Origin: Minisyncoccia bacterium
GTDB taxonomy: Bacteria > Patescibacteriota > Minisyncoccia > Phycocordibacterales > GWA1-40-21
DNA length: 64,000 nucleotides
Assembly: GCA_049287185.1 (NCBI GenBank)
Contig: JBAQFI010000004.1
Location: forward strand, 8,125-72,124
Direction: 5' to 3'
The notes beneath the pieces are model-generated. The model was given only the letters and a program-made list of their open reading frames with translations. It had not been told where the DNA came from and made no database searches. This document shows positions 35,227 to 36,824 of this stretch, in pieces (within the stretch, counting starts at the first letter, position 1; each line of letters opens with the position of its first letter). Both the position numbers and the translations under genes were made by a program.

Positions 35227-35235
35227 AAATTTGTT

Positions 35236-35303
35236 GCGGGGCCTGGAATCGCACCAGGGTCTAGAGGTTATGAGCCTCTCGAGATACTGCTTCTCTACCC
35301 CGC
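35236..35303 (-). tRNA. tRNA with CAU anticodon (Met/fMet/Ile2-type), compact
   Basis: Minus-strand read: GCGGGGU acceptor pairing ACCCCGC, anticodon arm AGAGG-cuCAUaa-CCUCU, T-arm CCUGG-UGCGAUU-CCAGG. Only ~68 nt, with an atypical T-loop and 3-bp D-stem, so boundaries are uncertain. Confidence 0.55.
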
Positions 35304-35407
35304 TATATAACTGCAATATCATATCGCAAAAAAACAAAAATGGCAAGGGACTGAAAATAAGGTTGTTTTTCCTCAAAAAAATGTTATATTAGTTTGGTTC
35401 AAGATAT

Positions 35408-35481
35408 GTCGGCGTAGCTCATCTGGCTAGAGCGTGGGACTCATAAGCCCAAGGTAGATGGTTCAAGTCCATCCGCCGACA
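35408..35481 (+). tRNA. tRNA-Met (CAU) (elongator or Ile2-lysidine type; G1-C72 paired)
   Basis: GUCGGCG acceptor/CGCCGAC, D-arm GCUC-AUCUGGCUA-GAGC, anticodon loop cuCAUaa, T-arm GAUGG-UUCAAGU-CCAUC, discriminator A. Confidence 0.8.
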
Positions 35482-35585
35482 CAATTGCAATGTAAATTTT
35501 CGTGTTTTATTTAAACCTTCCCCTAAGAATTTTTAGTCCTCGAAAGTGGTTAGTATAACTGCCTGTCACGTGATATAATAATTAT

Positions 35586-36260
35586 GTGCCAATCTTTAAA
35601 GATGTTAACAAGGATTTTTTCAAAAAATGGACACCCAATATGTCATATGTTTTGGGTTTTTTCGCAGCTGATGGTTATATTACTTTGAATAAAAGAAATG
35701 CAAATTTCTGGTGTATTCAAATTAAGGACAATAAACTTTTGCAAGAAATAAGAAAAGCAGTTGGCTCAAATCATAAAATTAGCGAGAGGTTTAATAATAA
35801 ATATAAGACTACTTTATATCGTCTTCAGATTGGTAGTAAAGAAATGTGTGATGATTTAAGAAAATTAGGATTTTATGAGGGTAAAACAAAGAACCTATCA
35901 GTACCAAATGTCCCTAGTAAATACTTCAAAGATTTTATTAGGGGATATTTTGATGGTGATGGTAATGTTTGGTCTGGACTTGTACATAAGGAAAGGGCTA
36001 AACCATTATTGACTATACGTTGTGTTTTTACTTCCTGTTCAAAACAGTTCCTTCTCGATATTCATGAACGTTTGTTGTGTTTCGGTGTTTCAGGTGGTGT
36101 TTTGAGTAAGGGTCAAGGTAACTATTATAGACTCACTTATAGCGCAAAAAGTACTTTGATTTTTTATGATTTTGTGTATAATGGTATAGTCAAAGATTCG
36201 AGCGGTTTGCACCTTGAACGAAAAAAAAGAATTTTTGATAAATATAGAATGCAGTTGTAG
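35586..36260 (+). CDS. LAGLIDADG homing endonuclease (double-motif, single-chain)
   Basis: Two LAGLIDADG motifs: LGFFAADGYI and RGYFDGDGNV, about 100 aa apart. The track uses a GTG start at 35586; an in-frame ATG (MSYVLGFF...) at 35640 is an alternative. The stop codon lies inside the tRNA-Asp 5' acceptor stem. Confidence 0.8.
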   Translation: MPIFKDVNKDFFKKWTPNMSYVLGFFAADGYITLNKRNANFWCIQIKDNKLLQEIRKAVGSNHKISERFNNKYKTTLYRLQIGSKEMCDDLRKLGFYEGKTKNLSVPNVPSKYFKDFIRGYFDGDGNVWSGLVHKERAKPLLTIRCVFTSCSKQFLLDIHERLLCFGVSGGVLSKGQGNYYRLTYSAKSTLIFYDFVYNGIVKDSSGLHLERKKRIFDKYRMQL

Positions 36261-36545
36261 CTCAATTGGTTAGAGCACTCGCCTGTAGACGTACGTGCAG
36301 CTTTCCTTCTGAAAGGGGGATTGAAACTCTCTGGGATAACGGTGGAGGCTAAGTTCATCAATTTGGTGAATAAGCGAATACCGTGGGAACCTCAATAATT
36401 TGTTGAGGGCGCCGTAGAGACTAGATACCGGAGTACCTAAATTTGCTTTTAGCAAATATGGTAAAGATATAGTCCACGCCATTATGAAAATATTGGAATT
36501 AGTGCACGCGAGAGGTCGCGGGTTCAAATCCCGTCAACTGCGCCA
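36251..36545 (+). tRNA. tRNA-Asp (GUC) interrupted by a group I intron in the anticodon loop; CCA encoded
   Basis: 5' exon 36251-36286 (GCAGUUG acceptor, D-arm GCUC-AAUUGGUUA-GAGC, CUCGC + cugu). 3' exon 36505-36545 (cac + GCGAG, var AGGUC, T-arm GCGGG-UUCAAAU-CCCGU, CAACUGC, G, CCA). Spliced loop cuGUCac. The arms closely match E. coli tRNA-Asp. Confidence 0.8.
36287..36504 (+). ncRNA. group I self-splicing intron (218 nt, no internal ORF)
   Basis: Exon ...CUGU pairs with IGS gcag (U·G at the 5' splice site, P1). The adjacent cgtg pairs with 3' exon cacg (P10). Conserved R-like gccgtagAGACUAgata and S element AAGAUAUAGUCC are present (P7 strands). The intron ends in G (omega G) at 36504. 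Confidence 0.8.
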
Positions 36546-36583
36546 AAATTAAACCGCCTTGTGCGGTTTTAATTTTGGCGCAG
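36541..36583 (+). terminator. long terminator hairpin incorporating the tRNA-Asp CCA end
   Basis: gcgccaaaattaaaccgc-cttgt-gcggttttaattttggcgc (18-bp stem). Confidence 0.7.
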
Positions 36584-36824
36584 TAAAACCAGTTTGAGAA
36601 AACTGGTTTTGTTCATTTGAAAATGAACTGACGGGATTTGAAAGACGGAACGCACCGAACGAAGTGAGGTCTGAATCTAGCAAGATTCAGAAGTGAGTCG
36701 GGGTCGAGAGTTCTGACGAGTGACGACGAGGAAGAAACTCGTGACCAATCATCCCGTCACTATTATCCTAATTACAAAATATCCAAAGAAGGGACTGACC
36801 CTGTAAGGGTCAAATCCCGTCAAC
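36546..36824 (+). other. structured ~280-bp insert downstream of tRNA-Asp, closed by a direct repeat of the tRNA 3' end
   Basis: gggtcaaatcccgtcaac (36807-36824) matches tRNA-Asp 3' end gggttcaaatcccgtcaac (36519-36537) with one deletion. The interior has multiple hairpins (aaccagtttgag...ctggtt; ctgaatct...attcag; tgacggga...tcccgtca closing a ~115-nt domain). Confidence 0.5.

Follow-up and report, generated by a model that had tools for sequence, protein, structure and literature searches.

The DNA analysed here is a 64-kb window (64,000 nucleotides, nt) of a Minisyncoccia bacterium (assembly GCA_049287185.1, contig JBAQFI010000004.1), a member of the class that NCBI taxonomy places in the phylum Minisyncoccota, which we take to be the Patescibacteria or Candidate Phyla Radiation under another name. 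Its plus strand carries a tRNA-Asp(GUC) gene into which a group I intron without an open reading frame (ORF) is inserted, at the boundary of anticodon nt 35 and 36. The spacer between a tRNA-Met gene and this tRNA-Asp gene is occupied by a gene for a free-standing LAGLIDADG homing endonuclease, whose reading frame ends inside the tRNA. We describe the split tRNA gene and its intron, the relation of the intron to its homologs, and the question of whether intron and endonuclease gene belong together.

The 5′ exon of the tRNA-Asp gene (GCAGUUGUAGCUCAAUUGGUUAGAGCACUCGCCUGU, 36 nt) has the 3′ end ...CGCCUGU, and the 3′ exon (CACGCGAGAGGUCGCGGGUUCAAAUCCCGUCAACUGCGCCA, 41 nt) begins with CACGCGAG and encodes the CCA; the first nucleotides of the intervening intron are AGACG and its last are ...UUAGUG. 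In intron mode ARAGORN calls tRNA-Asp(gtc) i(37,218) on the native sequence, and the exons joined in silico give a canonical 77-nt cloverleaf with the anticodon loop CUGUCAC, which is also the loop of the intronless tRNA-Asp genes found in syntenic position at two other loci (L254 and L256). A first-pass annotation of this DNA, made by a model from the sequence, had proposed a tRNA-Asp(GUC) with a 218-nt insert at 35/36 and a loop cuGUCac after splicing, and had suggested a tRNA search in intron mode as a check; its coordinates are correct to the base, the search makes the call given above, and the loop is the one in the ARAGORN cloverleaf. An Asp identity also fits the established identity elements: G73 is the discriminator, nt 10 is a G, and the T arm resembles the one in E. 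coli tRNA-Asp.

A long and nearly perfect hairpin at 36538–36583 (CTGCGCCAAAATTAAACCGC / GCGGTTTTAATTTTGGCGCAG) takes in the last nine nt of the tRNA, that is the 3′ strand of the acceptor stem, the discriminator and the CCA. Its inner part was flagged as terminator-like, and a second, A/T-rich hairpin follows at 36585–36610. The downstream terminator of L256 does not include the end of the tRNA.

The insert is matched by the Rfam covariance model for group I introns (Intron_gpI, RF00028) over 36298–36496. The match, obtained with an E-value threshold, covers the whole model (positions 1–253) at 43.5 bits, a score below the gathering score of the family, with E = 6.9e-10 when the local stretch is searched and E = 8.8e-8 when the whole window is, and it is the sole group I match in the 64 kb. 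Folded as a single sequence, the 218 nt recover P2, P3, P4/P5/P5a, P6, P8 and P9 in the minimum free energy (MFE) structure (−60.3 kcal/mol, z-score −2.9), and none of 200 shuffled sequences folds as well. Covariance search and folding were both named as checks in the first-pass annotation, whose group I reading is supported by the covariance model, by the single-sequence fold and by the homologs and covariation described below. The full-model match was obtained, P2–P6, P8 and P9 were recovered and the strands of the P3/P7 pseudoknot could be placed; the R-like and S elements that it had pointed out are present, as are the terminal G (omega-G, G36504) and the U·G wobble pair at the 5′ splice site, formed by U36286 and G36297 inside the P1 helix CUGUA/UGCAG. 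Just 4 nt lie between P7 and the 3′ strand of P3, so there is no room for P7.1 and P7.2 hairpins, which usually lie there.

Homologs were collected by scanning metagenome contigs with a 19-mer of the R element (GCCGTAGAGACTAGATACC), which returned at least 120 loci; the 19-mer GCCGUAGAGACUAGAUACC around the R element is common to them. The counts per host tRNA given below hold among the metagenome matches listed (L124–L240). Five contigs of a viral collection matched too, and two genome loci (L051 and L075) added further homologs. The latter had been found in an earlier scan of genomes with the pattern ATAGTC...GGTC..GGGTTC, which also gave many tRNA-Asn introns and, because ATAGTC occurs in D arms, matched ordinary tRNA genes as well. 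The five viral-collection contigs (IMG/VR, 65–485 kb, L241–L245) carry the R-element 19-mer and received odd host calls from ARAGORN (Ile tat, Gln ttg and 'Stop' tta); they may be phages or mis-binned contigs of Patescibacteria.

Among the matches listed, a homologous intron occupies the same site in 24 distinct tRNA-Asp genes, all of which show the arrangement ...CCUGU/AG...UG/CACG... (slashes mark the splice sites). The 5′ exon thus ends in ...CCUGU and the intron in UG in 24/24 genes, and U-1, omega-G and the pairs of P1 are invariant in every one of them. For an analysis of covariation 17 of the 24 introns were aligned with MAFFT, and the structure of the window intron was mapped onto the alignment. 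Standard pairs fill 91% of the cells, as against 35–41% when the 3′ partners are slid by 1–3 columns, the percentage paired being inflated by the derivation of the structure from the window sequence itself and the compensatory counts being free of this effect. Changes on both sides were seen in 32 of the 61 pairs, and none of 500 shuffles reached any of the observed measures. The covarying helices are P2, P3, P5a, P6, P8 and P9. P4 is paired in 100% of the cells and shows a swap from A-U to U-A in 7 of the 17 sequences. No variation is seen in P1 or P7; of the two strands of P7, the one in the R element belongs to the search pattern and the one in the S element lies outside it. Within the P1 loop of the window copy, positions 36289–36296 look like a 4-nt tandem duplication (ACGU ACGU).

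When the splice sites were re-derived across the whole family from P1 and the complementarity of the anticodon stem, 80 loci could be resolved, 35 of them in tRNA-Asp, 34 in tRNA-Asn and 11 in tRNA-Tyr, and all lie at 35/36. At every resolved locus the 5′ exon ends in CUGU and pairs with the guide GCAG, and CUGU corresponds to loop nt 32–35, which are common to all tRNAs with GUN anticodons. This pattern in the sequences supports the idea that the target may be chosen by pairing with the guide sequence; the intron family would have spread by reverse splicing or by transfer at the DNA level.

The first-pass annotation had in addition proposed a P10 helix between cgug in the intron and cacg in the 3′ exon. 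Both motifs are present, with CGUG at 36294–36297, but the full 4-bp helix is impossible: the last G of CGUG is already engaged in the U·G pair of P1, so that P10 can comprise at most 3 bp, offset by one nt. Only 13 of the 24 homologs have the CGU that such a helix requires, the CACG of the 3′ exon being invariant, and P10 is not a conserved feature of the intron family. P10 is dispensable in many group I introns, and in tRNA introns it is the anticodon stem that aligns the exons (Zaug et al. 1993, as cited in PMC3984707). In the splicing mechanism that we propose, the guide GCAG would pair with CUGU (anticodon-loop nt 32–35) to form P1 with U35·G at the 5′ splice site, and exogenous guanosine would attack after U35. 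The terminal G36504 would then occupy the G-binding site in P7, the exons would be held mainly by the anticodon stem of the tRNA and not by a P10 helix, and their ligation would produce the loop CUGUCAC. The positions of all features are collected in Table 1.

Table 1. Features of the split tRNA-Asp locus, in window coordinates, with the evidence for each
Feature	Position	Strand	Evidence
tRNA-Met(CAU), conserved upstream neighbour	35408–35482	+	tRNA search
Free-standing double-motif LAGLIDADG homing-endonuclease gene, 224 amino acids, GTG start	35586–36260	+	Pfam, homologs
tRNA-Asp(GUC) 5′ exon (acceptor 5′ strand, D arm, anticodon stem 5′ strand, loop nt 32–35 CUGU)	36251–36286	+	Sequence, ARAGORN intron mode, spliced cloverleaf
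Group I intron without ORF	36287–36504 (218 nt)	+	RF00028 match, fold z-score, covariation in 17 homologs
P1, CUGU/A with UGCAG	36283–36287 / 36296–36300	+	Invariant in 17/17 aligned introns and 24/24 homologs
P2 hairpin, UCCUUC / GGGGGA	36304–36320	+	6/6 pairs compensatory; in MFE fold
P3 5′ strand, CUCUGG	36329–36334 (pairs with 36428–36433)	+	99% of cells paired; 3/6 pairs changed on both sides
P4 (ACGGUG / UACCGU), P5 (GCU / AGC), P5a (UUCAUCA / UGGUGAA)	36339–36384	+	Agrees with covariance-model alignment
P6 hairpin, CCUCAA / UUGAGG	36390–36408	+	4/6 pairs compensatory; in MFE fold
R element GUAGAGACUAGAUA, with P7 5′ strand GACUA (36419–36423)	36414–36427	+	Aligned to RF00028 R consensus
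P3 3′ strand, CCGGAG, closing the P3/P7 pseudoknot	36428–36433	+	Covariation alignment
P8, outer stem ACC...GGU, inner stem AUUUGCU / AGCAAAU	36435–36462	+	Compensatory changes; MFE fold
S element AAGAUAUAGUCC, with P7 3′ strand UAGUC (36470–36474)	36464–36475	+	P7 invariant in 17/17
P9 hairpin, CCAUUAU / AUAUUGG, GAAA loop	36479–36496	+	5 pairs compensatory; in MFE fold
tRNA-Asp 3′ exon (C36-A37-C38, anticodon stem 3′ strand, variable loop, T arm, acceptor 3′ strand, discriminator G, CCA)	36505–36545	+	Sequence, ARAGORN

The protein encoded upstream of the tRNA has the same sequence (100% identity) as NCBI MFZ2038382.1, which comes from a Minisyncoccia bacterium metagenome-assembled genome (MAG) and bears the annotation of a LAGLIDADG family homing endonuclease. 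Two stretches of the protein match Pfam LAGLIDADG_3 (PF14528, E 3.4e-15), and the catalytic residues D29 (GFFAADG) and D125 (GYFDGDG) are invariant in 138 sequences that share 41–72% identity with it. At E ≤ 1e-5, 3,323 homologs are present in the protein database. Full-length homologs, 40–65% identical, lie directly upstream of split tRNA-Asp genes and on the same strand in the fetched loci searched by tblastn. When only distinct introns with an upstream flank of 700 nt or more are counted, the gene is adjacent at 18 of 24 tRNA-Asp loci and at 0 of 22 tRNA-Asn and 0 of 10 tRNA-Tyr loci (Asp against Asn plus Tyr, 18/24 versus 0/32, Fisher's exact p = 6e-10). Loci with the endonuclease gene include L051, L075, L122, L143, L172, L180, L188, L193, L222, L223, L229, L234 and L246–L258. 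The spacer between tRNA-Met and tRNA-Asp measures ∼715–770 nt where the gene is present and 49–393 nt in intron-bearing loci that lack it, and partial copies of the gene are found in three loci (L159, L169 and L215). Such presence, absence and decay at a single spacer is a pattern that a homing-endonuclease gene would be expected to show.

The last three codons of the gene together with its TAG stop (36258–36260) coincide with nt 1–10 of tRNA-Asp. Such an overlap is seen at 20 of 21 loci: lacking a stop codon upstream of the tRNA, the reading frame continues into it, ending in most loci at the TAG formed by U8-A9-G10 and in five at a TAG in the D loop. Only at L075 is there a stop before the tRNA, a TAA one nt upstream of position +1. 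With the stop codon lying inside the tRNA, cleavage by RNase P at tRNA position +1 would cut it off the endonuclease mRNA. A scan with consensus promoters found no promoter-like site on the plus strand upstream of either the endonuclease gene or the tRNA, the number of sites being no higher than in shuffled sequence.

The intron and the upstream LAGLIDADG gene might form one mobile unit of the 'collaborative homing' type. The restriction of the gene to Asp-hosted introns in the counts above points that way, as does the distance of only 36 bp between gene and intron, and a precedent exists in phages (Zeng et al. 2009; Bonocora & Shub 2009; both as reviewed in PMC3984707). However, when six proteins of the endonuclease family were sampled for their genomic context, four (P0020, P0093, P0107 and P0088) proved to be encoded next to an intron-bearing tRNA-Asp and two next to an intronless tRNA-Asp(GUC) with the same overlap, namely P0095 in Kaiserbacteria GCA_001779585.1 (L254/L255, tRNA at 2169–2244 of L254) and P0098 in Yonathbacteria GCA_002771015.1 (L256/L257, tRNA at 2178–2253). 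The endonuclease homologs in these two lineages are intact, and both lineages were seen in independent assemblies. Moreover, joining the exons of the intron-bearing L051 gives exactly the anticodon arm that L256 has, so that an enzyme aimed at the exon junction would cut its own genome. All three combinations are thus seen: endonuclease gene with intron, endonuclease gene without intron, and intron without endonuclease gene. Because the gene also stands beside intronless tRNA-Asp and introns also occur without the gene, the two vary independently, which argues against strict collaborative homing and favours a free-standing endonuclease inserted at the 5′ edge of tRNA-Asp. Strict collaborative homing was disfavoured once the intronless tRNA-Asp genes with an endonuclease gene had been found, and we regard a single mobile unit as improbable. 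A maturase role of the LAGLIDADG protein is likewise unlikely: the gene is found where tRNA-Asp has no intron, both catalytic Asp residues of the protein are conserved without exception, and splicing of a related intron needs no protein.

We therefore favour the reading that the upstream gene is a separate selfish element that has inserted at the 5′ edge of the tRNA gene, and the target of the endonuclease is probably not the intron insertion site. The short distance between them has a further consequence, in that the intron could be dragged along by gene conversion that the endonuclease triggers; such co-conversion during endonuclease-driven repair (trans homing, cf. T4 mobE/I-TevIII, PMC2790892) is plausible by analogy. 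Free-standing endonucleases beside ORF-less introns, with collaborative or trans homing, are represented by F-CphI at psbA of cyanophage S-PM2 and by mobE with I-TevIII in T4 (PMC3984707, PMC2790892, PMC6083498). In contrast to these, the window case involves a cellular genome, a tRNA gene and the LAGLIDADG family; its gene family is found beside intronless tRNA-Asp too, and its reading frame ends inside the tRNA. Tentatively, one could go further and picture a family of more than 3,300 members as active free-standing endonucleases for which the 5′ edge of the tRNA-Asp gene of Patescibacteria is the homing site and the universal U8-A9-G10 of the tRNA serves as stop, possibly dragging an ORF-less intron along by trans homing, with RNase P cleavage at +1 removing the stop from the mRNA. 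We consider this wider picture possible, and would not put it more strongly.

As for the tRNA gene itself, its exon and intron boundaries, the group I fold, the covariation and the membership of the intron family are observed directly, and we conclude that it is very probably a functional tRNA-Asp(GUC) of a Minisyncoccia bacterium, split at 35/36 by an ORF-less self-splicing group I intron. A number of observations weigh against this conclusion. The split gene is missed both by ARAGORN in its default mode and by the Rfam tRNA model, and at the gathering threshold Rfam reports no Intron_gpI in the window (43.5 against a gathering score of 50); matches below the gathering score were accepted for bacterial tRNA introns by Williams (2020) and Nakagawa et al. 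(2026). The P1 loop (GACGUACG, 8 nt) is 4 nt longer than the commonest one, GACG, and P9 carries one U-U mismatch. The patchy occurrence of the CGU for P10 and the inflated percentage of paired cells, both mentioned above, belong here too. Self-splicing of the window intron would be expected by analogy with another, more distant intron at position 35/36 of tRNA-Asp, for which an in vitro assay has been published, and the intron spliced in that assay, from Microgenomatia, aligns poorly with the window intron (∼75% over the aligned columns). Finally, our view is of one 64-kb window, and other copies of tRNA-Asp in the genome are possible.

Some of these features would be expected of a decaying pseudogene, in which the insert is no longer spliced and another tRNA-Asp elsewhere serves the cell: the Rfam score falls short of the threshold, 4 nt are inserted in the P1 loop, P9 has its mismatch, and only the window of the genome was seen. 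Yet the window copy agrees with every invariant column of the 17-member alignment, in which it is itself included, the stems formed by the exons are all intact, and a similarly long P1 loop (GACGAACG) is found in L258. Split genes are, in addition, usually the sole copy for their anticodon (Nakagawa et al., PMC13011429), and we judge decay to be very improbable. A host other than tRNA-Asp is less credible still, even though a shift of both boundaries by 2 nt gives a tRNA-Ala(UGC) with the intron at 33/34 and a shift by 1 nt a tRNA-Tyr(GUA), all three spliced versions pass ARAGORN as tRNAs, published tools are documented to mistake genes of this kind for Ala(UGC) with an intron at 33/34 (PMC13011429), and L150 and L182 were called Ala(UGC) by ARAGORN in this analysis: the Tyr register is excluded, since it would place A at −1 and C at the end of the intron (a criterion that excludes the Tyr register only, as U at −1 and a terminal G are found in the Ala register too), and 35/36 is favoured over 33/34 by the family-invariant P1 pairing of CUGU with GCAG and its U35·G, by inspection of the first intron nucleotides, in which no guide complementary to ...CGCCU was seen, by the CUGUCAC loop of the intronless tRNA-Asp genes in the same syntenic slot, and by the sequenced in vitro products of published introns, which confirm the 35/36 junction (PMC13011429).

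The split tRNA-Asp is thus real but already described as a type, being one more member of a published and experimentally supported kind of intron. The opinion of the first-pass annotation that an Asp(GUC) host with an insertion at 35/36 is uncommon is out of date, given its publication by Nakagawa et al. and the occurrence of the family at least 120 times in metagenomes. Williams (2020, bioRxiv 10.1101/2020.01.27.920355) had already expanded the bacterial tRNA types split by group I introns from 4 to 21, and Nakagawa et al. (mSystems 2026, PMC13011429; preprint 10.1101/2025.07.03.662931) described group I introns at 35/36 in tRNA-Asp(GUC) and tRNA-Asn(GUU) of Patescibacteria, in which this site is enriched (19/28 cases, from 4,934 complete genomes). 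In their study 25 of the 28 introns at 35/36 were classed as subgroup IA, and precise self-splicing in vitro was demonstrated for Patescibacteria tRNA-Asp and tRNA-Asn introns at this site, with an omega-G to C change as the negative control (PMC13011429). The window intron is like theirs in host tRNA, site, phylum, U-1 and omega-G, absence of an ORF and size (∼200–250 nt). It is 86% identical over the aligned columns to a Paceibacteria tRNA-Asp intron (GCA_023898525.1, Table S3 of PMC13011429), with P1 and the R and S elements alike; the intron that was spliced in vitro (GCA_001029755.1, Microgenomatia) represents a more distant branch. What sets the window copy apart is its source, a different and draft genome (the MAG of a Minisyncoccia bacterium, in which the contig measures 84.8 kb), a P1 loop that is 4 nt longer, and the adjacent LAGLIDADG gene, of which the text of Nakagawa et al. 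makes no mention; endonuclease genes were there scored inside introns only, and limited mobility was concluded from their lack (PMC13011429). As no other report of an endonuclease gene beside tRNA-Asp was found in the literature searched, this adjacent gene and its overlap into the tRNA are the only part of the locus that may be new.

The classical bacterial tRNA introns are located in tRNA-Leu(UAA) at 34/35 and tRNA-fMet at 33/34 (cyanobacteria), in tRNA-Ile (Azoarcus) and in tRNA-Arg(CCU) at 36/37 (alpha-proteobacteria). The window intron shares with them the compact ORF-less ribozyme in the anticodon loop, a P1 that uses anticodon-loop nt and the help of the anticodon stem in aligning the exons, and differs in host tRNA and site. 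The classical introns are of subgroup IC3 (Williams 2020), whereas those at 35/36 of Nakagawa et al. are mostly IA.

The neighbours of the locus in the window are housekeeping genes (NAD-dependent ligase, GatA, RF2, FtsE/FtsX and CTP synthase), and the G+C content is ∼36%. A phage origin was considered and rejected in view of these neighbours and of the lack of similarity to phage records. In related genomes a small ORF with a GIY-YIG domain (73–85 amino acids) stands between the two tRNA-Met genes of this tRNA cluster (L250, 1038–1295; L256/L257, 1059–1280), and may be a remnant of another homing endonuclease. This ORF is absent from the window, in which the two tRNA-Met genes, at 35233–35304 on the minus strand and 35408–35482 on the plus strand, are ∼100 nt apart.

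For the biology of these organisms the split gene adds one more lineage of ultrasmall bacteria in which essential tRNA genes are missed by default tRNA finders, with estimates of genome completeness distorted as a result, and it belongs to a single intron family that docks on the CUGU common to tRNAs with GUN anticodons. If the wider picture of homing at the 5′ edge of tRNA-Asp is true, these tRNA introns would have greater mobility than was concluded in the 2026 survey, where the absence of endonuclease genes inside introns was the basis, and cleavage by RNase P would couple the processing of the tRNA to the expression of the endonuclease. If the endonuclease is active, the locus would show a free-standing homing endonuclease stationed at a tRNA gene of a cellular organism; it could mobilise an ORF-less intron in trans, and this would bear on the origin of composite mobile introns as well as on the persistence of introns in genomes that are otherwise strongly reduced.

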